Source: a virus. From it: a DNA stretch of 47,617 nt. The stretch is from UHGV virus genome UHGV-0374065. The stretch is one strand, 5' to 3'. Position 1 is the first letter of the stretch; every line of letters begins with the position of its first letter. The notes beneath the pieces were generated by a model that worked only from the letters and a program-made list of their open reading frames with translations, ran no database searches and was not told the DNA's origin. A program made the translations under genes and the position numbers. Below, piece by piece: positions 31,017 through 47,617 of the stretch.

Positions 31017-31295
31017 ATGAAACTATCGCAACGAGGCGTGGAGACGTTTGGAATTACCGATGCCGTGGATATATCGCCTTACATCACTACCGAGACAACG
31101 CAGAATCAGTTCGACGCGCTGGCAAGTCTTGCCACCGACATTGGCATTTACGCGTTCCGTAAATCAACGCTTCTGAAGAAGCACAACCTCCGCTGCTTCT
31201 CATGTGCTGTTGCGCATTTCATCGCGTGGGGCGAGAAGACTGGCGACAAAGCAAAACGCAAAGCTGAAAAAGAGGTTTACTGGTATGGCTATTAG
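31017..31295 (+). pseudogene. C-terminal half of a GH24 (T4/P22-type) lysozyme, N-terminal catalytic half missing
   Basis: TQNQFDALASLATDIGIYAFRKSTLLKKHN...EKEVYW aligns with the C-terminal lobe of T4-type lysozymes. No Glu/Asp catalytic N-terminus is upstream. Confidence 0.55.
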
Positions 31296-31749: not shown

Positions 31750-31985
31750 AAAAGCTAAGCAACTGGCTGCTCGCCGCGTGGATTTCATTCTGCTCGCTGT
31801 TACAACTATGGCCTGATGCAATGATGCATGTGTGGGTAATGATGCCGGATGACCTGAAAGCAGCGCTACCGCCAATCGTGGTCAAAGGTGTGAGTTACTC
31901 AATTATGCTTGTCGGCATCATCGGCAAAATGCACGGCATGAGGAAGGAAAACCGGAGGCTGCGCAATGATGTCGATTCTCGTTAA
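31746..31985 (+). CDS. Putative holin (two transmembrane segments)
   Basis: 79 aa; transmembrane segments LLAAWISFCSLLQLW and VSYSIMLVGIIGKM; basic C-terminus. Lies between R and Rz. Confidence 0.45.
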   Translation: MKKLSNWLLAAWISFCSLLQLWPDAMMHVWVMMPDDLKAALPPIVVKGVSYSIMLVGIIGKMHGMRKENRRLRNDVDSR

Positions 31986-32457
31986 ATACTGGCGACCGCT
32001 GGCAATTATTATAATTGTTGCCGCTGGCGCGTTGTGGGTGGCAAATAAAGTGTCCGGTTATGGCGAGCAACAATATGCCGCCGGATACGCGAAGGCAGTC
32101 GCAGAACAGAAGGCCGCAGACGAACAAGAGGAGCAACGACGCAATGCAGAACTGCAAAAGATTCAGGCCGACGCACAGCAAAGGATTGATGCTGCGCGCA
32201 ATGATGCTGTTAATGCTGCCGCTAAGTCTGGCAGGTTGCAGCAACAACTCACCAGTATCCGCAAGCAGCTCGTCGGATATTCCACCGCTGAGTCCATTGG
32301 CAACCCAGCCGCAGAAACCGGAGTTTTGCTTGCAGACGTGCTCCGCAAATCTGTCGAAAGAAATCAACAGCTGGCAGATTACGCTGACAGGGCGAGAGAG
32401 GCAGGATTGACGTGTGAGGCACAGTATAATTCTCTGCGTAATAAAAAAGCCCCGTGA
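31966..32457 (+). CDS. Rz: i-spanin (Rz)
   Basis: N-terminal transmembrane segment LAIIIIVAAGALWVA, then a long coiled-coil periplasmic domain. Confidence 0.75.
   Translation: MMSILVKYWRPLAIIIIVAAGALWVANKVSGYGEQQYAAGYAKAVAEQKAADEQEEQRRNAELQKIQADAQQRIDAARNDAVNAAAKSGRLQQQLTSIRKQLVGYSTAESIGNPAAETGVLLADVLRKSVERNQQLADYADRAREAGLTCEAQYNSLRNKKAP
32189..32410 (+). CDS. Rz1: o-spanin (Rz1) embedded in the +1 frame of Rz
   Basis: MLRAMMLLMLPLSLAGC lipobox, then a Pro/Ser-rich mature part. SD AGGA before ATG 32189. Confidence 0.7.
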   Translation: MLRAMMLLMLPLSLAGCSNNSPVSASSSSDIPPLSPLATQPQKPEFCLQTCSANLSKEINSWQITLTGRERQD

Positions 32458-32471
32458 TGGGGCTTTGTTTT
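32446..32471. terminator. Bidirectional rho-independent terminator
   Basis: AAGCCCC-GTGAT-GGGGCTTTGTTTT. Confidence 0.75.
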
Positions 32472-32491
32472 AACCTTCTCCGTAGCCAATG

Positions 32492-32869
32492 TCACGCATA
32501 AAGCGCCTCCATCTTGTACCCAAACATAATTGCATTCTGATGCTCAGTGCTACCAGAAAACACCAGATAGCGTTTACCTCGATTATCCGTAACGATGCAG
32601 GCAGCTGGTGAGTTTTCCTTCCTAAATCTGGCTTCGTCATCACTCCCTTCATACATCCTCCCACTCGCTGGCAGACACAAATCGAATGTTTGAATTTCCG
32701 TTCCGCTGCATTCATTGCTACGTTCATTGAACAGGATAGCCAATCTTGGGTTGCCATTGGAATGCTTTGCAGGGAATGCGATTCTCCAGCCATCGTACAT
32801 ATACTGACTTGGGTAGGATAGCCATGACTTACCGCGCCTACCCTCCGTAAGAATCGGCTTACTCGCCAT
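32492..32869 (-). CDS. Hypothetical protein (125 aa)
   Basis: Start re-called at ATG 32869 (MASKPIL) with SD GGAGGA. Confidence 0.4.
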   Translation of the reverse strand: MASKPILTEGRRGKSWLSYPSQYMYDGWRIAFPAKHSNGNPRLAILFNERSNECSGTEIQTFDLCLPASGRMYEGSDDEARFRKENSPAACIVTDNRGKRYLVFSGSTEHQNAIMFGYKMEALYA

Positions 32870-33134
32870 TATGATCCTCCACAATCCGCACCAGTGAGCA
32901 CTCAAGATTCGGTGCATTGCAATTACCAGCCAGAAACAGCACGCTACCAGTGCTAATAAGCACCTGCTTCGCGTTCGCCTGCGACAGATTCTGCACGATG
33001 AATTGCGCTGTTTCTGTGCCGATTTTCAGCACTGCGCTGCCGTCGCTGTTCAGTGATACAAGTTGTGCGGAAGTGTCAGTAATGTTGGTGAAGTTCGCGT
33101 TTCGCTGCGCGATTGTGATGTCGCAAAAAGACAT
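32859..33134 (-). CDS. Hypothetical protein (91 aa)
   Basis: Operon position; overlaps neighbours by a few nucleotides. Confidence 0.4.
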   Translation of the reverse strand: MSFCDITIAQRNANFTNITDTSAQLVSLNSDGSAVLKIGTETAQFIVQNLSQANAKQVLISTGSVLFLAGNCNAPNLECSLVRIVEDHNGE

Positions 33135-33436
33135 TATTTAATCTCTCCGTTCAGTTCATTAACAATTAACGTTGCATAGCCAGCAATATCTTTCCAGCTG
33201 TCATCATAAGTCGGGTCGCCATTCAGAATGCGCCCAATCTTGTGCTGAATCATGTCGAGCGCCTCGCGTTGACTTGGTGTGAGATTGCGCCAGCCATCTA
33301 CCTTGCGCATCACATCTTTCAACTCCTGCATAATTTCAGCGCCGTCTTTGAATTTACCGTATCGACTACCGCGTTCGGTGATGAGTCGCTCTGTTGCGTC
33401 AGTATGGCGCTTATCGCCCGTGATTTGTGAACTCAT
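33134..33436 (-). CDS. Hypothetical protein (100 aa), possibly DUF6378-like
   Basis: RBS GGAG; ERGSRYGKFKDGAEIMQ...YDDSWKDIAGYATL. Confidence 0.35.
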   Translation of the reverse strand: MSSQITGDKRHTDATERLITERGSRYGKFKDGAEIMQELKDVMRKVDGWRNLTPSQREALDMIQHKIGRILNGDPTYDDSWKDIAGYATLIVNELNGEIK

Positions 33437-33923
33437 TGTGATGCATTCTCCTGAATTCTTTTATTTTTGCTTCTGCTTCTCTTGTGTCGGAAAAGTAACC
33501 AACTGTGAATCTTTTGCCATTTACTCCAACTCTTGCATGCCACTTGTTGTGCGATGAACTCCAGTTAACCCCCTTGATACCGCTAGTGTTGTTTTTGTTC
33601 ATTGCTTTGTTGTGGCTATTCTCAAATTTGCTGGCCTCCCTTAAATTGCACGCCCTGTTGTCATTGCGAATGCCATTAATGTGGTCAATCATTTCACTTG
33701 CTGGCGCGCCATGAATGCATATCCATGCCAATCTGTGAGCAAGAAAAGCCCTACCGCAAAGAATTATTTGCACATATCCATCTGGCTTTAAGTAGCCAGC
33801 CACACTCCCTTTTTCTGCAATCCTATTCCTTGTCTTTAGCCATTTAAATTCCCCAGTTAGTGGATTGTAGTAAAGGTAACTCAATATAAACTCCCTACTC
33901 GGCTCATCTCTCCTATGCCTCAT
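33411..33923 (-). CDS. HNH-AP2 homing endonuclease
   Basis: MIDHINGIRNDNRACNLREA and NTSGIKGVNWSSSHNKWHA. Its 3' end overlaps the downstream gene by 26 nt. Confidence 0.8.
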   Translation of the reverse strand: MRHRRDEPSREFILSYLYYNPLTGEFKWLKTRNRIAEKGSVAGYLKPDGYVQIILCGRAFLAHRLAWICIHGAPASEMIDHINGIRNDNRACNLREASKFENSHNKAMNKNNTSGIKGVNWSSSHNKWHARVGVNGKRFTVGYFSDTREAEAKIKEFRRMHHNEFTNHGR

Positions 33924-34126
33924 TTCTCATCCTCTTTCATTGTCACCCTATTATTCTCGTCAACACTGAAGTTGGCCCGAATCAAATCATACATATCTTC
34001 CTTAGGCATATCAGCCAGCGCCACATAGCAACGGGCGAAGTAGCGAACATCACGGAGTGTCAGCGGTTGTCGCTTCTCCACAATGCTGGTGATAATGTCC
34101 ATCGGCTCGCGTCGTGGTCTTGGCAT
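33920..34126 (-). CDS. Hypothetical protein (68 aa)
   Basis: First gene leftward of the divergent promoter at 34150-34200. Confidence 0.4.
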   Translation of the reverse strand: MPRPRREPMDIITSIVEKRQPLTLRDVRYFARCYVALADMPKEDMYDLIRANFSVDENNRVTMKEDEK

Positions 34127-34153
34127 ATTTACTACTCCTTCTCGAAAAACATC

Positions 34154-34197
34154 TTGACGTTTCTACATCATTTAGTCAATACTTGTTGACGTAGATT
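34154..34197. promoter_or_regulatory. Promoter region with TTGACG-N18-AATACT and a downstream TTGACGTAGATTG box
   Basis: TTGACGTTTCTACATCATTTAGTCAATACT is almost identical to TTGATGTTTCTACGTCAGTTAGCTTATACT at 17118. Confidence 0.55.
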
Positions 34198-34225
34198 GTA
34201 CCACAACGGAAAAGGTGATGTGGAA

Positions 34226-34423
34226 ATGCGATACAAAGAAATAGCAGCGAGATACCAGAAGGAAGTTCGCGAGGTTATGGAAATCCTTAACGTTCGCGAG
34301 GATACCATTAAGTTTGTGGAAACCGCCATGTGTTCACTGGCGCTTGAAGCGGAGGTTGCTGGTCGTGAAAAGGCTGACGAACTTATATCTGCGGTGGTTT
34401 ATAGTTCAACCAGTAACGGTTGA
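34226..34423 (+). CDS. Hypothetical protein (65 aa)
   Basis: RBS AAGGTGA; MRYKEIAARYQKEVREV... Confidence 0.4.
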   Translation: MRYKEIAARYQKEVREVMEILNVREDTIKFVETAMCSLALEAEVAGREKADELISAVVYSSTSNG

Positions 34424-34483
34424 AGATGAAGGTTATCTGTGCGTTGAGCACGTTGTTATCAAATTCTACGGGGGAAATTATAA

Positions 34484-34678
34484 ATGGCGCATGACGAACT
34501 GTACGAAGAATCGTTAATCCAGAGGTTGAATGAAGTTGAGCGCACTCGCGAATGGCTGGAGTGCGAGTTACGAGAAGTGCGCAACCGCCTGCAACGCAAG
34601 CGCAGTCAGCAAAGAGATGTCATCGACTGGTCTGGGGGTACACATAAATTTAACAATCTGGGAGAATGGTTGAAATGA
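34484..34678 (+). CDS. Hypothetical coiled-coil protein
   Basis: 64 aa. Confidence 0.4.
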   Translation: MAHDELYEESLIQRLNEVERTREWLECELREVRNRLQRKRSQQRDVIDWSGGTHKFNNLGEWLK

Positions 34679-35205
34679 GCAACATTAGTAAGGAAAGCAT
34701 TTTAAAGTTCCTCCAGCATGATGAAAATACAGGAAACTTTCTATGGATTGATAATTTCTCAAGAAAATCAAAGAAAGGGAAGGTGGCTGGAGGTATTACA
34801 TCGCATGGGTATTGGAGAATTCAACTCCCCATCGGGAAGTTTTACGCACACAGAATGGCGTGGATTGTTTGCAATGGAGATATACCAAACGGATATGAGA
34901 TTGATCACATAAATGGGAACAAGAAAGATAATCGCATCAGCAACCTAAGATTGGTCACAAGAGGTAAAAATGTTATGAATGTAGGCGTGAAAAACAATAA
35001 TACAAGCGGAGTTAAGGATGTTGTTTGGGACTCTTCGCGAGAAAGGTGGAGGGTTCAAATTACAGCCAATGGCAAGCATTATTATGGAGGTAGATTCTCG
35101 TCAATAACACAAGCAAAAGAGGAGAGGAACAGGCTCATAAAGATGGTTCACGGGAAATTTTTGAATACAAAAGGTGAGCAATATGACACTACTAATGAAC
35201 GATGA
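34675..35205 (+). CDS. HNH-AP2 homing endonuclease
   Basis: EIDHINGNKKDNRISNLRLV and NTSGVKDVVWDSSRERWRV. Confidence 0.8.
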   Translation: MSNISKESILKFLQHDENTGNFLWIDNFSRKSKKGKVAGGITSHGYWRIQLPIGKFYAHRMAWIVCNGDIPNGYEIDHINGNKKDNRISNLRLVTRGKNVMNVGVKNNNTSGVKDVVWDSSRERWRVQITANGKHYYGGRFSSITQAKEERNRLIKMVHGKFLNTKGEQYDTTNER

Positions 35206-35419
35206 GAAATTACTTGAATGCCCGTTTTGTGGTTGTGATGACGTAAGTGTTATTGATGACGGCGAATGGTTGCACGTTGAGTGCGGAGATTGTTTTTGCC
35301 GCACTGACTCGTATTGCTGCGCATCCACGGCAATGAAGAAATGGAACACAAGAGGTGGACACCTCTACACTTCCGACGACTTCAATCAGGCAGCAGAGGA
35401 GCGTGATTATGGACTATAA
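35183..35419 (+). CDS. Lar-family restriction-alleviation zinc-finger protein
   Basis: LECPFCG...LHVECGDCFCRTD...AMKKWNTR matches the Lar CxxC...CxxC...WN(R/T)R pattern. RBS AAGGTGAG. Confidence 0.6.
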   Translation: MTLLMNDEKLLECPFCGCDDVSVIDDGEWLHVECGDCFCRTDSYCCASTAMKKWNTRGGHLYTSDDFNQAAEERDYGL

Positions 35420-35897
35420 ATCACAAATCATGCGCGTGATTATGAATCACCCCGGAGCAACGCGCGCATACATTGAGAAGCATTGCGGAGGTAAGCATTC
35501 AAGCACCACAACGCATCGCTTACATGAGATGCTTGCTCTTGGATTCATTCGTCGCGAGAAGTCAGTGATTCGCGGCGGCAAGTGGCAGTATAAATATTTC
35601 ATCTCTGATGATGCAGCCGGTATTGATGATGCTATTAAGTGCCATTTGCTTGATAACGCTGGCGCGGAAGTGAAAGAAATCAGTACCACCACTGGCATTG
35701 ATTATCGCATCGTGAAAAGCCGCATCCGCATTATGTTTCATAACGGTGATGTGACGCGAAGCTATGACCACCACAAGAAGCTGTGGCGTTATTCATGGAA
35801 GGAGAAGGAAGTCAATGTAAGCAATCTATTTAATTCACTTCTTCGCAGCGTAAGGGGTCAGCATGGGAAAAGCCAAACGCAAGAAGCAAGAGTATGA
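35409..35897 (+). CDS. Protein with two predicted winged-helix DNA-binding domains
   Basis: Start re-called at ATG 35409 (MDYKSQIMRVI). Two wHTH-like segments. Possible regulator. Confidence 0.4.
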   Translation: MDYKSQIMRVIMNHPGATRAYIEKHCGGKHSSTTTHRLHEMLALGFIRREKSVIRGGKWQYKYFISDDAAGIDDAIKCHLLDNAGAEVKEISTTTGIDYRIVKSRIRIMFHNGDVTRSYDHHKKLWRYSWKEKEVNVSNLFNSLLRSVRGQHGKSQTQEARV

Positions 35898-36039
35898 ACC
35901 TCTACCGCCATGCGAAATGTCAGGAATGCCGCAGCAGGAGGATGTGATTCTCACCGAGGCTGAGTGGCGCAAGGTGGCAAGAGTGCAAATCATGTTCCGC
36001 AAACTTGCTGAGGATGTACTAAATGAAATGGGCTATTAA
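35863..36039 (+). CDS. Small hypothetical protein (58 aa)
   Basis: RBS AAGGGG; MGKAKRKKQEYEPLPPCEMSG... Confidence 0.35.
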   Translation: MGKAKRKKQEYEPLPPCEMSGMPQQEDVILTEAEWRKVARVQIMFRKLAEDVLNEMGY

Positions 36040-36214
36040 GCATAAATCCGGCAGAACTCTGTTTGTAACATCGGATGAGTTTATTGCCAATAACCGTAGA
36101 AAGATGGGCTGGATAGTAGAGGAAGTGAAGATGACGAGTAGAGAGCAGTTTGAGCAGTGGGTTAAGGAAGAAACAGGCTTTGATTTATGGCGCACAGAAT
36201 ACCCAATGACATAA
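36023..36214 (+). CDS. Hypothetical protein
   Basis: 63 aa. Confidence 0.4.
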   Translation: MKWAIKHKSGRTLFVTSDEFIANNRRKMGWIVEEVKMTSREQFEQWVKEETGFDLWRTEYPMT

Positions 36215-36426
36215 TGGGATAACCAGCAGTACAAATGCCATCAAACAAACCTTGCATGGATGGCATGGCAAGCATCGCGCGCGGCAATTGAGATTGAGTC
36301 TCCGGATTTCATTGATTCAAGAGCGGCATTAAATAAAGGCTACACGGTTGATTACTCCAATGGATTTGGTGACGCAATGGATGCATATGAACTGGCAATT
36401 CAGCAAGCGGGATTAGAGGTGAAAAA

Positions 36427-36753
36427 ATGATTATCCAGTTAAACGACATCATGAAAGCAGACATCATTCAACTTGAAGATTATGACATGCAACTAGCGTT
36501 TGAAATCGAAACCGTTGAGCGTCAACTTCAATATGCGGATAAGAAGAACGACCGCGTCTGGCACGAGAAAGCACTTAAGGCACGCGACCACATGAGGCGC
36601 ACTCGAGCACTCATCAAAACTCGTCTGGATAAACTTTATTTTGGCGAAGAAAGGATGCTTCACGGAGCTATTCTGGCGCAAATACGCAAGGAAATGCCTA
36701 TTGGCAAGTTCATGTCATATGTTCATCGCGCAAAACAGGAGGCTGGGTTATGA
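36427..36753 (+). CDS. Hypothetical protein
   Basis: 108 aa. Confidence 0.45.
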   Translation: MIIQLNDIMKADIIQLEDYDMQLAFEIETVERQLQYADKKNDRVWHEKALKARDHMRRTRALIKTRLDKLYFGEERMLHGAILAQIRKEMPIGKFMSYVHRAKQEAGL

Positions 36754-36938
36754 GTGAGCCAAAATTTCCAGAGCTGCCTGTTGAGGTTCAGGTTGCATTG
36801 ATTAATGCAGCAAGCGCAATGGCGACAAAGAAGATTGAGGCAATAGGCAGTGATTACAACAGGAACATAGACTGGTTTCAGAGGGAGTATCAAAAAATCT
36901 GCGACGCACTCTACAAAGAAAACAGGGGTAGATCATGA
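36750..36938 (+). CDS. Hypothetical protein
   Basis: 62 aa; ATGA overlaps at both ends. Confidence 0.4.
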   Translation: MSEPKFPELPVEVQVALINAASAMATKKIEAIGSDYNRNIDWFQREYQKICDALYKENRGRS

Positions 36939-37081
36939 TTCCATTACTGTGGATACTATCAGCCTACGCATTCGCAAGGGTATTTGAGGCTGATACTCTG
37001 TACCAGATGATTTGCTATGGCGCGCTGTTCTGCCTGTCAGGTGCTGCGCTCGCATTCATGGATGATGTGATTTCAGACTAA
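36935..37081 (+). CDS. Small membrane peptide (48 aa)
   Basis: MIPLLWILSAYAFARVFEADTLYQMICYGALFCLSGAALAF... Confidence 0.35.
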   Translation: MIPLLWILSAYAFARVFEADTLYQMICYGALFCLSGAALAFMDDVISD

Positions 37082-37275
37082 CACCGTATATCTTTTGTTC
37101 ATCATGGGCTGCTATCATTTAATCAGGCGGTAGCCCATGAATATAATCCCTATCACTTACTTTCTCACGCTATACGCGCTCACAGACTCACCATTGTTTG
37201 CACTGGCTACCGCCTCATGGTGCTATATCTCCCTGTGTTATAATTCGACCACAAACTAACCGTGGAGAGTTAACC

Positions 37276-39155
<1,880 letters not shown>

Positions 39156-39166
39156 GGAGCCGAATA

Positions 39167-40240
39167 ATGGAAAAGATTATTTTTACCAAAGACTTGGTAG
39201 CCAACTCCGCAGTGGTGGCTGACCAGTGGAAACATCTCACCATCGACCGCAAGGTGTTCTGCAATGCAGAAGCTGAACTGGCGAAAACATACGGTGTTAA
39301 CGCCACCGCGCTGGTAACGAAAGATTACTGGCGCGACGTGGATAACGTCACCACCCGTGTTTTCCGCAACGAAGCTGGCCAGGACATGATGGCTGACCTG
39401 ATGGGTATCGCGGCAAACATTAACATTGGTAAGACTGTGGCAATCAGCCGCATTGCTTCCGATGCTGGCAAGGTAGTCCGCACTCTGTCTGGTCAGGAGC
39501 CGGAAGACTTGGATAAAACTCGCTACGATTACACTGGCGACGTGATTCCAATCTTCAAAACTGGCTACAGCCGCGAATGGCGCGAACTGCTGGGTATGCA
39601 GTCTGAAGGTTTTGACCCCCTGCTGGACGATCAGGCTAACGTCACCTTTAACCTACGTTCCGACATGGCGCAGTATCTGCTGACCGGCGACCAGACTCTG
39701 AACGTGAACGGCGTTTACACTGGCTACGGTATCATCAACCACCCGAACACCATTCAGGTCAACCTGAACGTTTCCGATGGCGGCCTGAATATCGACCTGC
39801 AAACCGCAACGCCAGATGAAATCGTGAAATTCTTCAATCAGGATTTCCAGGCTATTCTGGATGCGCAGAACGTATTTGAGCAGGTGACTCTGTGGGTTTC
39901 CCCGGCAGTGCGTCGCAGTTTCATGCGTCCGTATTCTGATGCGGCGGGCTTCAAAGGCGGCACAGTTGAGCAGTACATCACGCAGTTCGGCAACGGTCGC
40001 ATCGGTAAGATTGGCACCAACTTCCTGCTGACTGGTAACCATTTCGTTGGCTACGTTCGCAACGATATGTACATCCGTCCGCGTGTTGCTCAACCTGTCT
40101 CCACCTATGCGGCGGCCCGCGTAAACCCTCACGATAACTTCAACTTCCTAGTGTGGTCAGCTATGGGATTACAGGTGCGCAAGGATTTCGCCGGTAAGTC
40201 CAAAGTGTTCAACGGATACGGCACGCAACCTGCGAAGTAA
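39167..40240 (+). CDS. Major capsid protein
   Basis: 357 aa, high codon adaptation, RBS AAGGAG. Followed by terminator at 40244-40268. Confidence 0.65.
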   Translation: MEKIIFTKDLVANSAVVADQWKHLTIDRKVFCNAEAELAKTYGVNATALVTKDYWRDVDNVTTRVFRNEAGQDMMADLMGIAANINIGKTVAISRIASDAGKVVRTLSGQEPEDLDKTRYDYTGDVIPIFKTGYSREWRELLGMQSEGFDPLLDDQANVTFNLRSDMAQYLLTGDQTLNVNGVYTGYGIINHPNTIQVNLNVSDGGLNIDLQTATPDEIVKFFNQDFQAILDAQNVFEQVTLWVSPAVRRSFMRPYSDAAGFKGGTVEQYITQFGNGRIGKIGTNFLLTGNHFVGYVRNDMYIRPRVAQPVSTYAAARVNPHDNFNFLVWSAMGLQVRKDFAGKSKVFNGYGTQPAK

Positions 40241-40243
40241 TAA

Positions 40244-40268
40244 AAAGGGGCGAATAGCCCCTCTTAAC
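40244..40268 (+). terminator. Rho-independent terminator after major capsid gene
   Basis: AAAGGGGC-GAATA-GCCCCTCTT. Confidence 0.6.
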
Positions 40269-40279
40269 TATCAGAGGTT

Positions 40280-40663
40280 ATGATGACCAGCAAAAGCATT
40301 GAGCAAGAGATTCAGGACAAAGGCAGTGAAGCGCCACGAGTAACCGGGCAACACATTGAAGGAATCATTGTCAGCGAGCACTACTTTACGGGCTATGATG
40401 GCATTGGTGGAGATGGTGCGTGGGCAAAATACAAGTCAGCACTTGACTTGCGTTCGAGCCATGAATCATTAAAACTTATCACATTCTGCGTATTGGTGTT
40501 GAAAAACGGATTCACCGTGACCGGAGAAAGCGCCTGCGCCAGTCCAGAGAATTTCGATGCTGAAATTGGTCGCAAGATTGCCAGGGAGAATGCGGTAAAT
40601 AAAATCTGGATGCTTGAGGGTTATCTCCTTAAGCAAAATCTTTCGGAGGTAAATAATGGCTAA
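40280..40663 (+). CDS. Gp49-like protein (Phage_gp49_66 family)
   Basis: LITFCVLVLKNGFTVTGESACASPENFDAEIGRKIARENAVNKIWMLEGYLL. Confidence 0.6.
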   Translation: MMTSKSIEQEIQDKGSEAPRVTGQHIEGIIVSEHYFTGYDGIGGDGAWAKYKSALDLRSSHESLKLITFCVLVLKNGFTVTGESACASPENFDAEIGRKIARENAVNKIWMLEGYLLKQNLSEVNNG

Positions 40664-40853
40664 ATACGAAGTCATCGCACGCGGAATCTTTGTGAAAGAG
40701 AAAGGCAAGATTCGTGAGTTACAGCTTGGCGAGGTTATCACAGAACCTGCTGAGCATCTGATGTCAAAGCTGCGCGTTATGCCAGAACTGGAAAAGTCTT
40801 TCGAAGTCGCAACCCCACAACAAAAGACGACAAAGAAAAAGAAAGCAGAGTAA
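40656..40853 (+). CDS. Hypothetical protein with Lys-rich tail
   Basis: 65 aa. Confidence 0.4.
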   Translation: MAKYEVIARGIFVKEKGKIRELQLGEVITEPAEHLMSKLRVMPELEKSFEVATPQQKTTKKKKAE

Positions 40854-40857
40854 ACTG

Positions 40858-40884
40858 AACCCGCATAATGCGGGTTTTTTATTG
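40858..40884 (+). terminator. Rho-independent terminator
   Basis: ACCCGCAT-AAT-GCGGGTTTTTTATT. Confidence 0.7.
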
Positions 40885-40893
40885 GGGGTTATC

Positions 40894-41712
40894 ATGGATG
40901 TCAGGTACGAAATAAACACAACTCCGGCTGACGGAGAGGTTTTGCTTAGCGAAACTATGTCTGCGGACTGGTCAGCATTACAGGTGCAGATTGTGCCGCT
41001 AAATTCTTCCGGTGGCTATGAGCCATTAACAAGCGGGTCTGTTTCTGTAATGGTATCGCCGTTCGCGTCTGGTGATTTCTGGATTGACGTTAACAATAAT
41101 AATTATTATGGCGTGGCGCTGCGACTGAAGGTGATTAAGTCACAAATACCCGCTGGCATTGCATCCCTGAAGGTCCTGGTATGGCGAGCTGCTACATCAG
41201 TACCATCAAGTCAGGTTGTCGCGCAGTCTTATGCAGAGCTTGCCAATAAGCAAGGGAAGCTGTTCACTGCGTCGCGCAGGGTGACTGATGTTGCTGGCGG
41301 AGCTAACCTTGATAGCATCTTTATCACCGGTTCAAAACAGGTTGTGTTTAATCAACGCATCATCGGGTACACCGGTAAAGGTGTCGTAGCGTCAATCTAC
41401 CGTGGAGCTGTAGCCACTGGCGGTACGGCGGCAGAGATTAATAATCCCAACGACATAACGCCTCAGGCAGCTACGGCGCAGTTACTTACTGGTGCTACCG
41501 TGACAAACATTGGACAGCTGACGGTGGCAGCAACATACAGTGAGGGTAACGCATCGAATCAGGGTCAGGGTAACTCGCAGGCGAAACTCGGCGAGCAGAT
41601 TATCATGGCACCAAATACGACGTATTTGCTTCGCATAACATCACTGGACACTGCGGTGCAAAATATCAATGCATATGTGTCATGGTTTGAGGATGATACT
41701 TATCTGGCGTGA
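40894..41712 (+). CDS. Putative virion structural protein (272 aa)
   Basis: RBS GGGGG, Gly/Ala/Thr-rich beta-type sequence. Within the head gene block. Confidence 0.4.
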   Translation: MDVRYEINTTPADGEVLLSETMSADWSALQVQIVPLNSSGGYEPLTSGSVSVMVSPFASGDFWIDVNNNNYYGVALRLKVIKSQIPAGIASLKVLVWRAATSVPSSQVVAQSYAELANKQGKLFTASRRVTDVAGGANLDSIFITGSKQVVFNQRIIGYTGKGVVASIYRGAVATGGTAAEINNPNDITPQAATAQLLTGATVTNIGQLTVAATYSEGNASNQGQGNSQAKLGEQIIMAPNTTYLLRITSLDTAVQNINAYVSWFEDDTYLA

Positions 41713-41715
41713 TAA

Positions 41716-41742
41716 AACAAAGCCCCGTGAAGGGGCTTTGAT
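41716..41742. terminator. Bidirectional rho-independent terminator
   Basis: AAAGCCCC-GTGA-AGGGGCTTTG. Confidence 0.7.
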
Positions 41743-41744
41743 TG

Positions 41745-42221
41745 CTACAGACGCATAGGCATAACAACAATCTTCGCAGTCTCGCCAGATGGCGCACTAA
41801 GACAGCAAACTGCGGCATTTGTATTTCCATTCAGTTCAAATTTGACACCACAGAATTTAGGATTAAACAGCTTCGCCACTTTCTCAATATCAACAAGGTA
41901 TCCAGCATTGAAGCCTATTTCCTCTGCTGCTTTCGTTTCCCTTGGTATAACGTGATCAATATCAGGGAATCGACCATCAATCTCTTCGCAGATACCAGCA
42001 CCAACCATTGTGTCCATATGGCCGAAATGATAAGTAACGATTCCAGATTTTGTATCGATGATCGCATGGTTATATTTCTTTTTCGGAGACTTGCTCACCT
42101 TTACAATCACACTTTCTGTCAGCTTATTGTCATGGCTGCCGCCAATAAATGCGCGATGACCGTCAGTTGAGGCAATACGACCATCAGGCATGAAGCAGAT
42201 GCCATTCAGGTAATACCGCAC
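41745..42221 (-). CDS. Truncated DNA polymerase III beta sliding-clamp (DnaN) homologue: domain II plus the C-terminal strands of domain III, GTG start, possibly a pseudogene
   Basis: NDVRYYLNGI, TDGHRAF, IDGRFPDIDHVIP, EIGFNAGYLVDI and terminal IVVMPMRL mirror E. coli DnaN residues about 150-366 (…DVRYYLNGM…DGHRLA…VDGRFPDYRRVLP…EIGFNVSYVLDV…YVVMPMRL). An in-frame TAA lies 9 codons upstream of the GTG. About 75 residues of domain III are absent. Confidence 0.6.
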   Translation of the reverse strand: MRYYLNGICFMPDGRIASTDGHRAFIGGSHDNKLTESVIVKVSKSPKKKYNHAIIDTKSGIVTYHFGHMDTMVGAGICEEIDGRFPDIDHVIPRETKAAEEIGFNAGYLVDIEKVAKLFNPKFCGVKFELNGNTNAAVCCLSAPSGETAKIVVMPMRL

Positions 42222-42280
42222 ATCATTGCGAGCCTGAAATATTAATGCTTATTCAAGTAATAGTTTGCTTGTTTTTAGTT

Positions 42281-42457
42281 TCATTTGATCACCTCAAATT
42301 TATATTTAGGCTCAGGCCATGTCGCGGTTCCGTCTTCCCATCGGACATATACTGGTTGAATTTTGTCCTCAATATCTACCTTCTCAACTACGCAAGGTAG
42401 CGGGTCATATTCTGGAATGATTATCTTATCTCCAACTTTTAAATCAGTTAATTCCAT
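42281..42457 (-). CDS. Small hypothetical protein (58 aa)
   Basis: MELTDLKVGDKIIIPEYDPLPCVVEK...; TGATG coupling with upstream gene. Confidence 0.35.
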   Translation of the reverse strand: MELTDLKVGDKIIIPEYDPLPCVVEKVDIEDKIQPVYVRWEDGTATWPEPKYKFEVIK

Positions 42458-42630
42458 CACTTCACCTTAATCATGTGTTGTTTTGCAACCTTCAGGCATT
42501 CTTCAAAAATGCCGCCCTTCTTAGCGCTCTGATTGCGCTTGTAATACTGAATTGCCACATCAATTGCCATCTGGTCGATGTCAGGCAACTTGGTGCGAAG
42601 TTGTTTTTCAATGAATTGTTCTGGTGTCAT
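42457..42630 (-). CDS. Small hypothetical protein (57 aa)
   Basis: MTPEQFIEKQLRTKLPDIDQMAIDVAIQYYKRNQ...; TAATG coupling with the methyltransferase stop. Confidence 0.35.
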   Translation of the reverse strand: MTPEQFIEKQLRTKLPDIDQMAIDVAIQYYKRNQSAKKGGIFEECLKVAKQHMIKVK

Positions 42631-43430
42631 TAAACGGACCTCATGAATGCTTTAATGAATTCTGCTGCGACTTGTGGAACTATGGCATTACCATAACCGC
42701 GCAATCGTCCCACTCTTGCGGATACCCCATGAGTTGCCTCGCAAAATCCGCCTGGTATGACTCTAGTTTCCTTATCTGCTCCATGGTTGGGTTTCCATGA
42801 ATCCCATAAACATGAAGCCACATCTGGCGATAAAGAGTATCGTTCCTGAATTTCCCGTCCTTTCTGTAAAATGACTTGCTGAGATTCCCGTAATCCTTCC
42901 ATCCTCGCGCCGTTGGTGTCGCCCATCCTCGCGCCAAAGATGATTCTTTTCCTTTCCTGTGGAGAGCCGACGCTGCAAGCTGGCAATACTGACGCCCCGC
43001 AGGCGTAGCCTTTGTCTTCCAGGTTAAGGAATACAAAATCGAGCCAGTGCTTCCCAATTGCTGCTGCAACCTGCTCTCCAAACAGCAATTCAGGCTTGCA
43101 CTCTCTGATGAGCCTGAGAAATGCTGGGGCAAGGTGTCGATCGTCGTCAAATCCGAGAGACTTACCGGCAACGCTAAACGGCTGGCAAGGTGGTGATCCT
43201 GTCCAGAGTCGAGTGCTTTCTGGTATTCCTGCCAGCTGGAGTGCAAGGGGCCACCCTCCGATTCCGGCAAAGAAGTGACACTGTGTAAATCCTTCCAGGT
43301 CTGAAGGGGTGACTTCGGTGATTGATCGTTCATCGACATATCCGTAAGGAATTAGTTTATTGTTAATTAATTCACGCAGCCATGCCGCTGCGCCCTTGTC
43401 CCACTCATTGTAATAGTGGACCATCATCAC
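42630..43430 (-). CDS. DNA (cytosine-5)-methyltransferase, compact phage type
   Basis: Motif I FAGIGG, motif IV GSPPCQPFSVAGK, motif VI-like FGEQV, motif X GNAIVPQVA. Confidence 0.8.
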   Translation of the reverse strand: MMMVHYYNEWDKGAAAWLRELINNKLIPYGYVDERSITEVTPSDLEGFTQCHFFAGIGGWPLALQLAGIPESTRLWTGSPPCQPFSVAGKSLGFDDDRHLAPAFLRLIRECKPELLFGEQVAAAIGKHWLDFVFLNLEDKGYACGASVLPACSVGSPQERKRIIFGARMGDTNGARMEGLRESQQVILQKGREIQERYSLSPDVASCLWDSWKPNHGADKETRVIPGGFCEATHGVSARVGRLRGYGNAIVPQVAAEFIKAFMRSV

Positions 43431-44236
43431 ATCTTCTCCAGAATTGCCATCACCTCGTGAATATCAGCAACAGGAATCTTGATAAACTCCTCATTCTCTG
43501 CCACTACATGACCAGCAGGAAGAATAACGTGGTCAGCTGGCTTCAGTAACTCAATCAGTCGGTCTACTGGCTTAATCTTTTTCGACTTGAGCACTTTCGC
43601 CGTGACCTTGTCTTTGCCTTGTGCCTTCGCTTCTTCGACTGCCTCGTCGATAACTTTAACCGCATCATCGCCATGCTCGCGAGTTACTGCTACGGCATTT
43701 GCATAGCTGATTTGCCCTGCACTGATTCGCGCTTTTACTTCGGCTGGCACATCACCCAGTGACAGGTGCATCTGCACGTCAGAAACTGAGCGCCCTACCT
43801 TCTTGGCGATTTCCTCGTTGGTCCAGCCAAAACCCTTCAGTCGCGTGTAAGCCTTTGCGCGTTCAAACGGGTCAAGCTGCTTACCCTGACTGGACGACAC
43901 CATGAAGGCGATTTTATCTGCTTCGCCTCCTGTGAAATCCTTGCACTCAATACGAACAATTGGTGCGCCACGCTCAATGGCACGCAATGCGCCTAGATAG
44001 CGATACTGACCATCAAGAATGCGGATTCCCTTCTCATCAGGAATAACTGTTAATGCTGGTAATGGCTGACCTGATTCCCAGCACTGCGCGAAATACTCCA
44101 CATGCTGCTCGTCTGCTTCGCGGATGTTGTATCCCGGCTCCAGATAGATTTGCTCCACTGGCACGAGATAGGTTTTGTTAACAGCGATTCCGTTGCGCGT
44201 TTCTTTGTCTGAATAGATTTTGCTAAGTGTTTTCAT
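43427..44236 (-). CDS. ParB-like nuclease-domain protein
   Basis: ParB/Srx box GIRILDGQYRYLGALRA. The start was re-called at 44236 (MKTLSKIY); the track ORF begins at 44329. Confidence 0.6.
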   Translation of the reverse strand: MKTLSKIYSDKETRNGIAVNKTYLVPVEQIYLEPGYNIREADEQHVEYFAQCWESGQPLPALTVIPDEKGIRILDGQYRYLGALRAIERGAPIVRIECKDFTGGEADKIAFMVSSSQGKQLDPFERAKAYTRLKGFGWTNEEIAKKVGRSVSDVQMHLSLGDVPAEVKARISAGQISYANAVAVTREHGDDAVKVIDEAVEEAKAQGKDKVTAKVLKSKKIKPVDRLIELLKPADHVILPAGHVVAENEEFIKIPVADIHEVMAILEKM

Positions 44237-44237
44237 A

Positions 44238-44429
44238 TCATTCACCACTTTCTTCCAATAATTGCTCGTAATATGCGACGTACTCATTAGCAAGATGGTA
44301 CAGGCGCTCAGCAGACTTGCGTTCTGCATTACTTAAGTCACCAATAGACTCAATGTTGCCAATTACATCAACACAATCATTGAAGTCTTGCTCTGTATTA
44401 CGAAATCGACAGTAGGACATGTTTGCCAT
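44238..44429 (-). CDS. Hypothetical protein
   Basis: 63 aa. Confidence 0.4.
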   Translation of the reverse strand: MANMSYCRFRNTEQDFNDCVDVIGNIESIGDLSNAERKSAERLYHLANEYVAYYEQLLEESGE

Positions 44430-44431
44430 GA

Positions 44432-45061
44432 TTAATCCTCATCACCAGAATTAGCAATATCGTAAAACTGACCGTAGGTTATCTGCTTAAAGTTATCAGG
44501 TATCGTTACCTGTCCGTGACCTTCATCTTTTGTATTTGGCACAGCAAAAATCAAACAATCATCCTTTTTCGGGTGTTTGCCTCCATAAGTAGAAAGCATT
44601 GCAAAACCAAATCCGCGACCAGATTGCTCACCAATGCCGGTACGTGCGATGCCATAATGGTTAACAATGTAGTCCTTCCATACTGGCAATAACTTTAATT
44701 TCTCGTTTGCCTCGCGCATCACTGCGTCCAGCTTTTTGTTGTATTCACGACCATCCTTTGTGTTTCCTTTCCCACGAACAATAACCACGCGCTGACCTTC
44801 CCAAAAATCTTCACGTTTTATTGTTACAGGGCATGGAAATTCAAATTTATTGCTCCACGCAAAACTCTCAAGCAGGCCACCGCTAACAGCGCCCCAACTG
44901 CGCGTTGTGGTAAATGCGACAGCTCCAACCTTTTTCATTGCGTCACCGAAAATTTCATTGCGGCGATTCTTGATGTCATCGTATGCGTCGATTAGTTTCT
45001 TAACATCATCACCTTCAACCATGTAATAATCATAATGTTTTGCGTTACTACTCATCTTCAT
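44432..45061 (-). CDS. Hypothetical protein (209 aa), first gene of the ParB/methyltransferase operon
   Basis: Start re-called at MKMSSN (SD GAGGTG). Acidic C-terminus. No recognisable domain. Confidence 0.45.
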   Translation of the reverse strand: MKMSSNAKHYDYYMVEGDDVKKLIDAYDDIKNRRNEIFGDAMKKVGAVAFTTTRSWGAVSGGLLESFAWSNKFEFPCPVTIKREDFWEGQRVVIVRGKGNTKDGREYNKKLDAVMREANEKLKLLPVWKDYIVNHYGIARTGIGEQSGRGFGFAMLSTYGGKHPKKDDCLIFAVPNTKDEGHGQVTIPDNFKQITYGQFYDIANSGDED

Positions 45062-45075
45062 CACCTCTAACATTT

Positions 45076-45127
45076 ATTGTTGTTTCTACGTCACTAACTA
45101 TAAACGCCACATCAATCTACGTCAACA
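45076..45127. promoter_or_regulatory. Face-to-face divergent promoters with two operator-like boxes
   Basis: Plus strand has TTGTTG-N16-TATAAA (45076-45103). Minus strand has TTGACG-N17-TATAGT. Boxes TTTCTACGTCAC and CAATCTACGTCAAC. Confidence 0.55.
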
Positions 45128-45172
45128 GGAATATGCTAAAATCATGCTAATCAAACAACAGGAGATTTAAAC

Positions 45173-45292
45173 ATGGGTTCAACCAACTCACCATCTCGTT
45201 CGCGCGCTACTGGCAACACAAAAACTGGCGGCAAAACTGGCGTGGTGAAGCCAAACGGCTCTACCCGTTCACCATCGCGCGGTAAAAAATAA
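45173..45292 (+). CDS. Small basic Ser/Thr/Gly-rich protein (39 aa)
   Basis: RBS AGGAG; MGSTNSPSRSRATGNTKTGGKTGVVKPNGSTRSPSRGKK. Coordinates are +/-1. Confidence 0.35.
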   Translation: MGSTNSPSRSRATGNTKTGGKTGVVKPNGSTRSPSRGKK

Positions 45293-45732
45293 TGTTCGGC
45301 GCAGATGTTGCCATCATGATCATGTATGTGCTTGGATTTGCCTGCACGGGCATGGTTGCGTTTCTGGTGTTCATTCCGGCAATGGTGATGTCTGTGTATC
45401 TTGGATGGGTGCTTGTTGATTCATTTCCCGCCGAATATCTGTATTACCTTGCGCAGTGTATGGTCTGGTTGTTTCCGGCTATTGCGCTGCGTAAAAGTAC
45501 AAAGATGGCGCTCTGCGTGCTGACGATGAGCCTTTACGAATGGCTGGTTGCGATAGAGTCATTCGTATGGGAATTTATCACGCCTGTAGAAACGCCGCTT
45601 CATGCGCAGTACGCATTTATTATTATCGGCATCCATCTGTTCATCCTTTCCATCACTTTTAAATGGGGCGGCGAAATTGGACATTATTCTTGGCGTGGTT
45701 GCCATCGTTTTTTCGCTGATTCAAATCTATAA
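45292..45732 (+). CDS. Integral membrane protein (about 4 transmembrane segments)
   Basis: 146 aa; TAATG coupling. Confidence 0.45.
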   Translation: MFGADVAIMIMYVLGFACTGMVAFLVFIPAMVMSVYLGWVLVDSFPAEYLYYLAQCMVWLFPAIALRKSTKMALCVLTMSLYEWLVAIESFVWEFITPVETPLHAQYAFIIIGIHLFILSITFKWGGEIGHYSWRGCHRFFADSNL

Positions 45733-45764
45733 GTGCTGGAAACATATTATCAGCGAGACTCGCA

Positions 45765-46049
45765 ATGAACGAAACACTAAGACAGGCCGCAGAGCAAGTT
45801 ATAAGCGGGACGACGGGGCAGGTGATTGACAAGGCTGGATATGCCTCCATTGGTACTGGTATTGGACTGAAAGTTGCAGAGCAAACGCCTGTCACGCAGT
45901 CTTATTTTGAGGCTATGATTCCACACAGTCTGACAGAGTGGGCGGCAGTAGCGTCAATCCTCGGCGCCCTGTCTCTGGTAATAAAGAACCTCTTTGAAAT
46001 GTGGTGGAATGTACGGGAGTCAAAAAAAAATGGCAGCACCAACACCTGA
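45765..46049 (+). CDS. Hypothetical protein with C-terminal transmembrane segment
   Basis: 94 aa; transmembrane segment WAAVASILGALSLVIKNLF. Confidence 0.4.
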   Translation: MNETLRQAAEQVISGTTGQVIDKAGYASIGTGIGLKVAEQTPVTQSYFEAMIPHSLTEWAAVASILGALSLVIKNLFEMWWNVRESKKNGSTNT

Positions 46050-46422
46050 AGAATTAGTAAGCCAGATGGCATCACGTGGAATGACTATCACCACAACGGA
46101 TGCGTCTGGTATTCTGTGTCTTGTGGCATCAATCAGTGAATGCCTTGAGCTGAACTACCCCAATGATGAATGCCGGCAAAATGCGATCATGCTGTGGGCT
46201 TCCATCCTGATTAGCGCAAATACCGCAGGGCGCTACGTCACCAGTCAGAGCGCACCATCTGGCGCATCGCAATCATTCGCTTATGGCAGCAAGCCGTGGG
46301 TGGCGCTATACAATCAGATGAAACTACTGGATACAGCAGGATGCACTGGCGATTTAGTGGAAGACCCGGACGGCGGCGGCAAGCCGTGGTTTGCGGTTGT
46401 GCGTGGGAGTAAATGCAAATGA
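46030..46422 (+). CDS. Head-tail connector protein (gp6-like)
   Basis: Start re-called at ATG 46030, immediately after an A9 tract, with SD GGGAG. Position and composition match a connector. Confidence 0.45.
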   Translation: MAAPTPEELVSQMASRGMTITTTDASGILCLVASISECLELNYPNDECRQNAIMLWASILISANTAGRYVTSQSAPSGASQSFAYGSKPWVALYNQMKLLDTAGCTGDLVEDPDGGGKPWFAVVRGSKCK

Positions 46423-46760
46423 CTTCACTGGCTAACTGGAGCTACACGCAACCATGCACCATCTGGCACAAAAGAGGCACTGACAAGTACGGCAAGCCAA
46501 CTTTTGACGCGCCAGTGAGCATCATGTGCGATTATGGCTTTAACGATGATGTATCGACCGATGCGAAAGGCAATGAGATTGTGCAGAAAAATACATTCTG
46601 GACAGAATACACTGACGCTAATGTTGGTGATTACATCATGATTGGCACGGTGACAGAAGCTGACCCGCTGGCGGCTGGCGCAAATCAGATTCTGAATGTG
46701 ATTAACTATGGCTCAACTTTCAACAGGTCAGAGCCACCTGACTTTGCACTGGTGACATAA
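46413..46760 (+). CDS. Head-tail adaptor / head closure protein
   Basis: 115 aa, connector module position. Confidence 0.4.
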   Translation: MQMTSLANWSYTQPCTIWHKRGTDKYGKPTFDAPVSIMCDYGFNDDVSTDAKGNEIVQKNTFWTEYTDANVGDYIMIGTVTEADPLAAGANQILNVINYGSTFNRSEPPDFALVT

Positions 46761-47158
46761 TGCCAGCGAAATTAAGAGGCGTCCGACAGGCCGTAGAGAG
46801 AACATCGCAGATTGTGGATGAGATAATCGCCACGAAAGCTGTGCGTGCAATTAAGTCAGCGACATACATCATCCGCACCGAATCAGCCACGCTAACGCCA
46901 ATTGATACATCAACGCTAATTAACAGTCAGTTTGATACCGTGGAAGTTAGCGGAACGCGAATCACTGGCAAGGTTGGCTACTCTGCAAAATATGCACTGT
47001 ACGTCCACAATGCCAGCGGTAAACTTGCAGGGAAACCGCGCAGCAACGGCAACGGCACGTATTGGTCGCCGGGTGGTGAACCACAATTCCTGACCAAAGC
47101 AGCGCAACGCACAAAAGACCTTGTTGATAGCGTGATTAAGAAGGAGATGACACTCTAA
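46760..47158 (+). CDS. HK97 gp10-family tail component
   Basis: YSAKYALYVHNASG... matches the gp10-family pattern. Confidence 0.5.
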   Translation: MPAKLRGVRQAVERTSQIVDEIIATKAVRAIKSATYIIRTESATLTPIDTSTLINSQFDTVEVSGTRITGKVGYSAKYALYVHNASGKLAGKPRSNGNGTYWSPGGEPQFLTKAAQRTKDLVDSVIKKEMTL

Positions 47159-47532
47159 TGAATATGCTTGAACTGGTTGATGCATATCTTCAGGATGCAG
47201 GATTGTACGATGGCTGGACTTCGCAGCTGCAGTTCTGGAATGACACCGGAGATGGAAGTGAGCAATTTATTGTTCTGCAATCCAACGGTGGCACTCAGGT
47301 TATGGATGGCCTCGGCGGTGACTTCTATTTTTCGCTGTATGTTGTTGGCAAACAAGGCCAATACAATGTTGCTGATGTTGATTCGAAGGCCAATGAGATT
47401 ATCGAATACATCAAAACACACCCGATTGATTCATGCGTTAACTACATCCAGTTGCAAGCGCCACTTGGCAGGGCAATGCTGACGGAAGAAAAAAGACCAG
47501 TGCATGAACTGCTATTGCGTGTTGTGAAATAA
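47158..47532 (+). CDS. Tail terminator / tail completion protein
   Basis: 124 aa, last gene before the major tail protein once the ends are joined. Confidence 0.4.
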   Translation: MNMLELVDAYLQDAGLYDGWTSQLQFWNDTGDGSEQFIVLQSNGGTQVMDGLGGDFYFSLYVVGKQGQYNVADVDSKANEIIEYIKTHPIDSCVNYIQLQAPLGRAMLTEEKRPVHELLLRVVK

Positions 47533-47533
47533 A

Positions 47534-47560
47534 TAAAGCCGCATGAAGCGGCTTTTAATT
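47534..47560. terminator. Bidirectional terminator serving the connector operon (+) and the tRNA (-)
   Basis: AAAGCCGC-ATGA-AGCGGCTTTTAATTT. Confidence 0.7.
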
Positions 47561-47617
47561 TGGTGGACACGGACGGATTTGAACCTTCAATCAGCCGATT
47601 ATTAGTCGGTTGCTTTA
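47561..47617 (-). tRNA. 3' 57 nt of a canonical tRNA (continues at 1..20); anticodon loop CUAAUAA, predicted anticodon AAU (assignment uncertain)
   Basis: Reverse complement is ...AAAGC-A-ACCGA-CTAATAA-TCGGC-TGATT-GAAGG-TTCAAAT-CCGTC-CGTGTCC-A-CCA. It contains T54 T55 C56, G53-C61, A73 and an encoded CCA. Confidence 0.6.

Follow-up and report, generated by a model that had tools for sequence, protein, structure and literature searches.

In bacterial systems, genes for tRNAs with an adenosine at the wobble position (A34) are, to our knowledge, very rare apart from those for tRNA-Arg(ACG). Other tRNAs in which A34 stays unmodified are Mycoplasma tRNA-Thr(AGU), yeast mitochondrial tRNA-Arg(ACG), and a mutant Salmonella tRNA-Pro(AGG); as for the wobble cytidine, TilS acts on C34, and MetRS needs it. 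Bacterial TadA is specific for tRNA-Arg(ACG) and makes base-specific contacts with this single substrate (PMC9643335). In an Escherichia coli study of 15 A34 anticodons, set in an anticodon loop that is described as matching the tRNA-Arg2 loop exactly, inosine was found only for AAG, AUG, and ACG, which target CNU codons; the AAU tRNA read AUU at 4.5%, AUC at 0.43%, and AUG at 0.27%, with AUA below detection and no inosine (PMC11066159). Against this background, we analyzed a phage tRNA gene with the anticodon AAU in a viral DNA of 47,617 nucleotides (nt) (UHGV virus genome UHGV-0374065; this whole stretch is referred to as the window). Judged from sequence comparisons, its AAU anticodon is real and is a one-base allele (C34 to A) of a CAU-bearing tRNA-Ile2-type gene found in sister phages, a relationship overlooked in an earlier note on this DNA. 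We lean toward a real accessory Ile-type tRNA that now serves as an AUU reader with an unmodified A34.

ARAGORN predicts no tRNA in the linear window. On the end-joined or circular window, it returns one 77-nt tRNA-Ile(aat), complement(47561..20), with 57 nt from the right end and 20 nt from the left end, which bears out the earlier proposal of a minus-strand tRNA gene split by the ends of the record. Its parts are as follows.

47561..47617, minus strand: nt 21 to 77 of tRNA-Ile(AAU), i.e., the end of the D arm, anticodon arm, variable loop, T arm, 3' acceptor strand, A73, and CCA (ARAGORN on joined ends; Rfam)
47601..47603, the window positions complementary to the anticodon AAU of this tRNA (ARAGORN)
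1..20, minus strand: nt 1 to 20 of tRNA-Ile(AAU), i.e., the 5' acceptor strand, U8, A9, D stem, and most of the D loop (ARAGORN c[47561,20]; intact copy in phage HC6)

Read directly, the 77-nt sequence has U8, A14, G18, G19, A21, U33, T54, T55, C56, A58, A73, and an encoded CCA, and its 7-nt anticodon loop is C-U-A-A-U-A-A, giving the anticodon AAU. The identical 77-nt copy in HC6 forms a cloverleaf that scores 62.1 bits against the Rfam tRNA model RF00005 (gathering score, 29), and even the partial 3' stretch in the linear window (47564..47617) scores 31.3 bits, still above the threshold. To call the tRNA canonical is slightly generous, as A27.C43 and A51.G63 in its stems are non-Watson-Crick; both are kept across the lineage.

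The tRNA is phage-borne, as had been claimed, and the same 77 nt lie uninterrupted and internal in many related phage records (Skate, 22095..22171; Seszw; HC6; gmqsjt-1). The window phage falls in the Skatevirus/Swiduovirus cluster of virulent small siphoviruses, with Escherichia phages HC6, 6947, and HC8A as its closest relatives (~97.8% identity). A 3-kb junction construct (1500 nt from each end) aligned with HC6 as a single collinear 2867-nt block across the join at 97.6% identity; this, together with the contiguity of the 77 nt in relatives, means that the record is permuted and the join is real. No overlapping or redundant sequence was found between the window ends. KlebP_265, a relative of this phage group, has terminal redundancy and full permutation according to PhageTerm (PMC11769527), and the simplest account is therefore a circular assembly cut open at an arbitrary base. 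The earlier alternative of a closed or circularly permuted molecule thus holds for the permutation; a closed circle is not required of the virion DNA. In sum, the window is the genome of a virulent Skatevirus-like siphophage in permuted form, and the point at which the record was opened fell by chance within a real tRNA gene; the split is in itself routine and shows only that permutation.

The body of the tRNA speaks for isoleucine. The bacterial Ile identity set comprises A73, C4-G69, U12-A23, C29-G41, A35, U36, A37, and A38 (PMC9976931), and all of these are present in the window tRNA, so the Ile-type body and the AAU anticodon reported in the earlier note both stand. Of the Ile determinants in the D loop, U20 is present and G16 is replaced by U16, and at position 34 the determinant G or lysidine is replaced by A34. 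The elements of elongator tRNA-Met are C34, A35, and U36, together with U4-A69, A5-U68, and, as a minor element, C3-G70 (PMC9976931). A tRNA-Met identity was rejected since the window tRNA has A34, C4-G69, G5.U68, and A3-U70 instead, and its closest host match is ileX. Among complete E. coli genomes, 5423 of 5426 have as their best match to the phage tRNA a gene that is annotated by PGAP as "tRNA-Ile," adjoins mug, and has the anticodon CAU. ARAGORN labels E. coli ileX "Met" too, so "tRNA-Met" on the phage CAU alleles is a mere default naming of the CAU anticodon. By tRNAscan-SE 2.0, some CAU tRNAs of this phage group have been classed as Ile-CAT (PMC11769527). From these features, the lineage is best read as a tRNA-Ile2-type reader of AUA. 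The sister alleles retain C34, the substrate of TilS, in place of which the window gene has A34; by its sequence, it is descended from the tRNA-Ile2 family and is not a functional member of it.

The CAU alleles of sister phages (swi2, STGO-35-1, Bas80, Lewi, and KFS-SE2) are the same as the window gene at 76 of 77 nt, lie at the same locus with the same terminator, and differ in having C34 where the window has A34; they are annotated "tRNA-Met." CAU is the majority allele (swi2, Lewi, ECO95, STGO-35-1, Bas80, PSH-1, and KFS-SE2); AAU is carried by the window phage, HC6, Skate, Seszw, and two uncultivated contigs; and UAU is found on the same tRNA body in the Mu-like phages BUCT618 and L132. 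Because CAU is also found in the Klebsiella and Vibrio phages of the outgroup (Roufvirus group), C34 is ancestral. Tallied as haplotypes over the collected loci, the close set has 16 CAU, 6 AAU, and 2 UAU and the distant set has 13 CAU. The records of HC6 and Skate already label the gene tRNA-Ile; the novelty seems to lie in the series of alleles at the wobble base and in the descent of the gene from tRNA-Ile2. Literature searches on tRNAs with an AAU anticodon in phages found nothing. A pattern for the lineage tRNA had 0 matches in 185,579 bacterial and archaeal genomes, and hence there is no bacterial source gene among them. A broad pattern, CCGACTNATAATCGG, run against IMG/VR recovered, among the matches listed, mostly unrelated CAU tRNAs and says little about the window lineage; it also turned up two other AAU tRNA lineages.

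Several observations on other viruses belong beside this series. The two unrelated AAU lineages are both called tRNA-Ile(AAU) by ARAGORN, one in viral contigs L085 (361-432), L271, and L272, with AAU in 3/3 contigs found, and the other in L059 (9858-9925) and L273 to L278, with AAU in 7/7 contigs found; the tRNAs of both are somewhat noncanonical. The UAU carriers BUCT618 (L007 1497-1573) and L132 are unrelated Mu-like phages of ~38-40 kb, in which the end of the acceptor stem is changed and position 73 is G. The shared body implies that the tRNA has moved horizontally from one phage type to another. A distant homologue, tRNA-Ile(GAU) of Pseudomonas Pakpunavirus (L010 498-573; >100 records), has the loop C-C-G-A-U-A-A with C33 in place of the near-universal U33.

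The hosts use AUA and AGA less than any other sense codon. In the window they are used at 11.8 and 9.3 per 1000 codons, respectively, AUA use in these phages is more than twice that of the hosts, and several relatives have a tRNA-Arg(UCU) beside the lineage tRNA. In the sister phages, CAU would be converted by the host TilS to lysidine-AU, and the rare codon AUA would thereby be read. In the window phage, A replaces C at wobble position 34, and as TilS acts on C34, this allele offers it no base to modify. A34 would presumably stay unmodified in an enterobacterial host. If IleRS charges the A34 tRNA, which keeps all known determinants except N34, the tRNA should read AUU by Watson-Crick pairing and AUC weakly; by analogy with the engineered tRNA, the most likely outcome is that AUA reading is lost and AUU is read instead. 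The A34 tRNA would then be an accessory, dispensable AUU reader, independent of both TilS and TadA, and its charging would probably be less efficient than that of tRNAs with G34 or lysidine-34.

Several observations bear on whether the allele is maintained. The flanks of A34 carriers differ by 8-14% from each other, and in neighbor-joining trees of either flank, A34 alleles are scattered among CAU alleles, with at least three upstream haplotypes common to both. The scatter is due to recurrent mutation or to spread by recombination, two processes inseparable in mosaic phages whose flank trees disagree; in both cases the allele is long-lived. The tRNA differences among A34 carriers number 0-1 versus the 7-9 predicted by flank divergence (pairwise Poisson P ~1e-3 to 1e-4, for pairs that are not independent). 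Only two substitutions occur in A34 alleles, G5A (G5.U68 to A-U; L144) and C28U (C-G to U.G; L244), and both preserve pairing. In the anticodon loop, only position 34 varies, positions 35-38 being identical in every lineage member examined. About 50 listed derivatives of phage seszw from a genome-reduction study keep the exact gene; nothing shows that the tRNA was targeted for deletion. The paper itself describes 69 sequenced mutants and never mentions the tRNA (PMC9825161).

A number of observations weigh against a strong role as an AUU reader. AUA is used at 11.8-13.4 per 1000 codons alike in phages with AAU, with CAU, and without the tRNA, and Ile usage is the same, so that a search for codon coadaptation to the allele came out empty. 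The putative highly expressed late genes have almost no AUA and prefer AUC over AUU, and there is therefore no need for extra AUU reading. The gene is precisely missing in Bas79, ST1UNAM, and a Pantoea-associated phage scaffold, where the terminator and adjacent block remain. No strong sigma-70 promoter was found directly upstream of the tRNA in a promoter scan of HC6. Yeast IleRS recognizes A34 poorly, and I34 raises charging 16-fold (PMC11685878); by analogy, the A34 allele may be weakly active. The E. coli TilS elements in the acceptor stem are C4-G69 and C5-G68 (PMC11947777). In the window tRNA 4:69 is C-G and 5:68 is G.U instead of C-G, and for that reason we can only infer that TilS lysidinylates even the phage CAU alleles. 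Finally, the 105 nt adjoining the tRNA equal it in conservation, and the leader-tRNA-terminator block is conserved in CAU phages too; because the leader is conserved there and also without the tRNA, part of the low tRNA divergence may not be due to selection on tRNA function.

The most probable rival explanation is a crippled or neutral allele in which the change of C34 to A kills the ancestral AUA reading and a poorly charged, useless tRNA persists in a dispensable gene within an otherwise conserved block. It draws on the precise absence of the tRNA in several relatives, on codon usage that is identical with or without it, on the poor recognition of A34 by yeast IleRS, and on an adjacent leader that is equally conserved independently of the tRNA. 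We nevertheless judge it somewhat unlikely. A34 occurs without any disruptive change in five or more diverged backgrounds, both substitutions being pair-preserving, and the variation in the anticodon loop is confined to position 34. In addition, AAU is fixed in the two other viral tRNA lineages, and the roughly 50 listed seszw derivatives retain the exact gene, though with no sign of the tRNA being a deletion target.

The frame of the tRNA-Arg2 anticodon loop, CU-NNN-AA, is the same as that of the window tRNA. This bears on a eukaryote-like decoder, in which TadA or another deaminase would produce IAU that reads AUU, AUC, and AUA and so restores AUA reading without TilS. Such a decoder would suit the heavy AUA use that persists in the phage, and the loop C-U-A-N-N-A-A is in the same frame as that of the TadA substrate tRNA-Arg(ACG). 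It is, however, very unlikely, given that TadA makes base-specific contacts with a single substrate (PMC9643335) and that AAU in a tRNA-Arg2-type loop acquired no inosine and gave AUA decoding below detection in E. coli (PMC11066159). On the latter data inosine-34 was rejected as unlikely, and the suggestion in the earlier note of a modified A34 is not supported, inosine having been seen only with AAG, AUG, and ACG and not with AAU (PMC11066159). It is highly improbable, too, that the role is nontranslational, with the tRNA fold serving as a signal for RNA processing or punctuation or as a decoy for a host nuclease, or in some comparable role, and the anticodon being irrelevant: possible cotranscription with an upstream structured RNA and the freedom of position 34 to vary would agree with it, but positions 32-38 should then drift, whereas only 34 varies, and within the NAU Ile box (C, A, and U), and all IleRS determinants except N34 are retained. 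A chimeric or miscircularized assembly, with ends not truly joined and a coincidental tRNA, is effectively refuted by the exact 77 nt being contiguous in dozens of independent records and by the collinearity of the junction with HC6.

The surroundings of the accessory AUU-reading tRNA proposed here comprise the following features.

47158..47532, plus strand: tail terminator protein gene (Pfam PF23842, E = 2.1e-40)
47535..47555, no strand assigned: hairpin AAAGCCGC-ATGAA-GCGGCTTT with T-runs on both strands (terminator scan on the HC6 copy)
21..125, no strand assigned: conserved block of ~105 nt at the tRNA 5' end, with a tandem repeat, ACCCATACAT x2 (alignment)
519..547, minus strand: sigma-70-like promoter TTGACA-17-TAGATT, pointing to a tag-like RNA and the tRNA (promoter scan on HC6)
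599..1318, plus strand: major tail protein gene (orthologue annotation in Skate, KFS-SE2, and Bas79)

Thus, the placement of the tRNA among structural genes, as originally described, is borne out, with the tail terminator gene on one side and the major tail protein gene on the other; the tRNA strand is opposite to both neighbors. The major tail protein (599..1318) matched no Pfam family at its curated cutoff. The hairpin lies directly after the CCA end of the tRNA and is kept in the tRNA-less Bas79 and ST1UNAM; it is probably a bidirectional terminator for the tail terminator gene (plus) and the tRNA (minus). The block at 21..125 is nearly invariant in all relatives, also where the tRNA is precisely missing, and is therefore not a mere tRNA leader. 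The annotation of Bas79 makes it a plus-strand open reading frame of 33 amino acids (aa) (window 40..141), and that of Skate makes it a longer one with a corresponding start. As a structured tRNA leader the block was rejected, its fold z-score being only -1.1 and its persistence extending to phages without the tRNA. The promoter is conserved in all aligned relatives, including those with a different cassette downstream, and we infer that the tRNA is cotranscribed from it.

The spacer that separates the tail terminator gene from the major tail gene is a hot spot at which tRNAs and mobile genes are gained and lost (L006 1584-1659; L137; L008/L009 1414-1490; L002 7964-8455; L152 ~930-990). In some relatives, it holds the tRNA-Arg(UCU) next to the tRNA, and in swi2 and KFS-SE2, it has HNH endonuclease insertions; a tRNA-like remnant that includes a T arm (GCAGGTTCGATTCCTGT) is present in ST1UNAM, and a related sequence seems to occur in Skate. 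Elsewhere in the window, 23923..23986 (plus strand) matches the Rfam int-alpA RNA RF02996 at 42.6 bits versus a curated threshold of 35.8 (E = 1.4e-5).

The same spacer contains an RNA that resembles transfer-messenger RNA (tmRNA), situated ~400 nt upstream of the tRNA, on the same strand, and behind the promoter at 547..519. We refer to it as the tag RNA; its elements are as follows.

243..512, minus strand: tmRNA-like RNA module (weak Rfam tmRNA matches; homologous loci; covarying helices)
454..422, minus strand: 10-codon tag frame GCA..UAA encoding ANDDVVLMAA* (GCA AAC GAU GAU GUU GUU CUG AUG GCG GCG UAA)
406-402/391-387, minus strand: hairpin after the tag (among members, CAAGG/CCUUG, UGAGG/CCUCA, and CGGGG/CCCCG)
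397-394 with 377-374, minus strand: pseudoknot pairing of the hairpin loop with downstream sequence (among members, CCGA/UCGG, CCAG/CUGG, and CCAA/UUGG)
334..318/263..245, minus strand: long imperfect inverted repeat CACAACAGGTAAGAGCA...AGTGCTCTTTCCGTTGTG, a stem enclosing a hypervariable insert of 40-200 nt

The lead-in to the tag is nearly invariant among homologous loci (...GAAACUGACCACAAAGAUAAAU). The tag frame is start-less, as a tmRNA resume frame is: an in-frame UAG precedes it by eight codons, and the interval holds no AUG, GUG, or UUG. In a pattern scan and the collected loci together, 58 distinct homologous loci have 17 nucleotide and 10 peptide versions of the tag, always of 10 codons and a stop. 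The consensus is A-N-[DE]-[DE]-x-[VIYMF]-L-[AMI]-[AV]-A, in which the search pattern itself set the first two residues (A-N); the tag of E. coli tmRNA is ANDENYALAA. The hairpin and the loop-to-downstream pairing after the tag covary in a fully compensatory manner, which supports a pseudoknot. Two Rfam tmRNA models match weakly, exactly at the tag-template region, with 27 and 18 bits, below threshold (E = 0.0016 in a 700-nt search and 0.11 over the whole window), and such sub-threshold scores with a window-wide E of 0.11 alone prove nothing. The tag RNA occurs both with and without the tRNA and is unannotated in the records of relatives examined (HC6, swi2, and KFS-SE2).

Neither a tRNA-like domain (G3.U70 acceptor stem, T arm, and CCA) nor a two-piece partner was found anywhere in the window with ARAGORN and Rfam. 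No Rfam tmRNA or tRNA-like match reached threshold near the tag RNA in the window or in 10 family members, under conditions that recovered two control tmRNAs, and ARAGORN -m made no credible tmRNA call in any member, its single call (swi2) borrowing the adjacent tRNA. By this test, the tag RNA is not a tmRNA, although it resembles the messenger half of such a molecule. The antisense protein gene that is annotated in Bas79 was rejected, since the open frame on the antisense strand differs from member to member in its frame, its length (29-144 aa), and its ends. In bacterial genomes, the tag RNA is absent except for one phage scaffold in a Pantoea assembly, and no bacterial origin was found for it. 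This 20-kb Pantoea eucrina scaffold (NZ_JAOBTT010000003.1; L270) shares the promoter, the tag RNA, and the major tail gene and lacks the tRNA; it evidently represents a phage of the window group and is probably a contaminant or a cosequenced phage. The architecture of the tag RNA region is that of a modular, repeat-bounded cassette: the inverted repeat is duplicated in U133 (L133) and L121 relatives, and a third CACCACAACAC copy lies near window position 125. A tmRNA database paper describes tag-less phage tmRNAs and nothing like the opposite case (PMC11915505).

The value of the locus lies first in a natural isogenic C34/A34/U34 series on one tRNA body, carried by easily grown E. coli and Salmonella phages for which gene-less relatives are available. 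The series makes testable the decoding by unmodified A34 in the Ile/Met box in vivo, the acceptance of A34 by a bacterial IleRS, and the dependence of a phage tRNA-Ile2 on TilS. It also shows "tRNA-Met" labels on phage CAU tRNAs to be unreliable. Conservation of the tag RNA extends to at least 58 distinct phage loci; if functional, this RNA would be a new means by which phages interact with ribosome rescue. We entertain, as an unlikely and speculative extension, that the A34 tRNA is selected, functional, and independent of TilS and TadA and forms the 3' gene of an RNA cassette whose 5' member is the tag RNA, the two acting as a joint module that tampers with decoding and ribosome rescue; such a module might, for example, supply or compete for the tag template in trans-translation. 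A module combining an A34 tRNA and a tag RNA was not described in the literature searched.

Comparison with known systems places the two RNAs as follows. The tag RNA shares with tmRNA (SsrA) a start-less 10-codon tag frame, the resume-type context AUAAAU|GCA, a tag of the form AND...AA, and a pseudoknot after the tag and differs from it in having no tRNA-like domain, scores below the Rfam thresholds, and no credible ARAGORN call. The tRNA is closest in kind to E. coli tRNA-Ile2 (ileX/ileY), whose CAU becomes lysidine-AU and reads AUA, sharing the CU-NAU-AA loop, C29-G41, G30-C40, A31-U39, C4-G69, U12-A23, A73, and a non-Watson-Crick 27.43 pair (G.U in ileX, A.C in the window tRNA). Unlike tRNA-Ile2, it leaves TilS no cytidine, having A34, and has G.U rather than C-G at 5:68; the identity is only ~75%. 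Direct AUA readers of the tRNA-Ile(UAU) type, known from Mycoplasma mobile and Bacillus subtilis tilS suppressors, are represented here by BUCT618 and L132 on the same body, where U34 would keep the AUA reading that A34 does not. Eukaryotic cytoplasmic tRNA-Ile(AAU), which is matured to IAU, has the same encoded anticodon. It needs the broad-specificity ADAT2/3, in contrast to the specificity of bacterial TadA (PMC9643335), and shows no homology of the body with the window tRNA. A functional parallel is the engineered Methanocaldococcus jannaschii tRNA(AAU) with an unmodified A34 in E. coli, with which the expected decoding is alike, U >> C with little or no A or G (PMC11066159); in contrast to that construct, the window gene is natural, is conserved in enterobacterial phages, and belongs to the split Ile/Met codon box.

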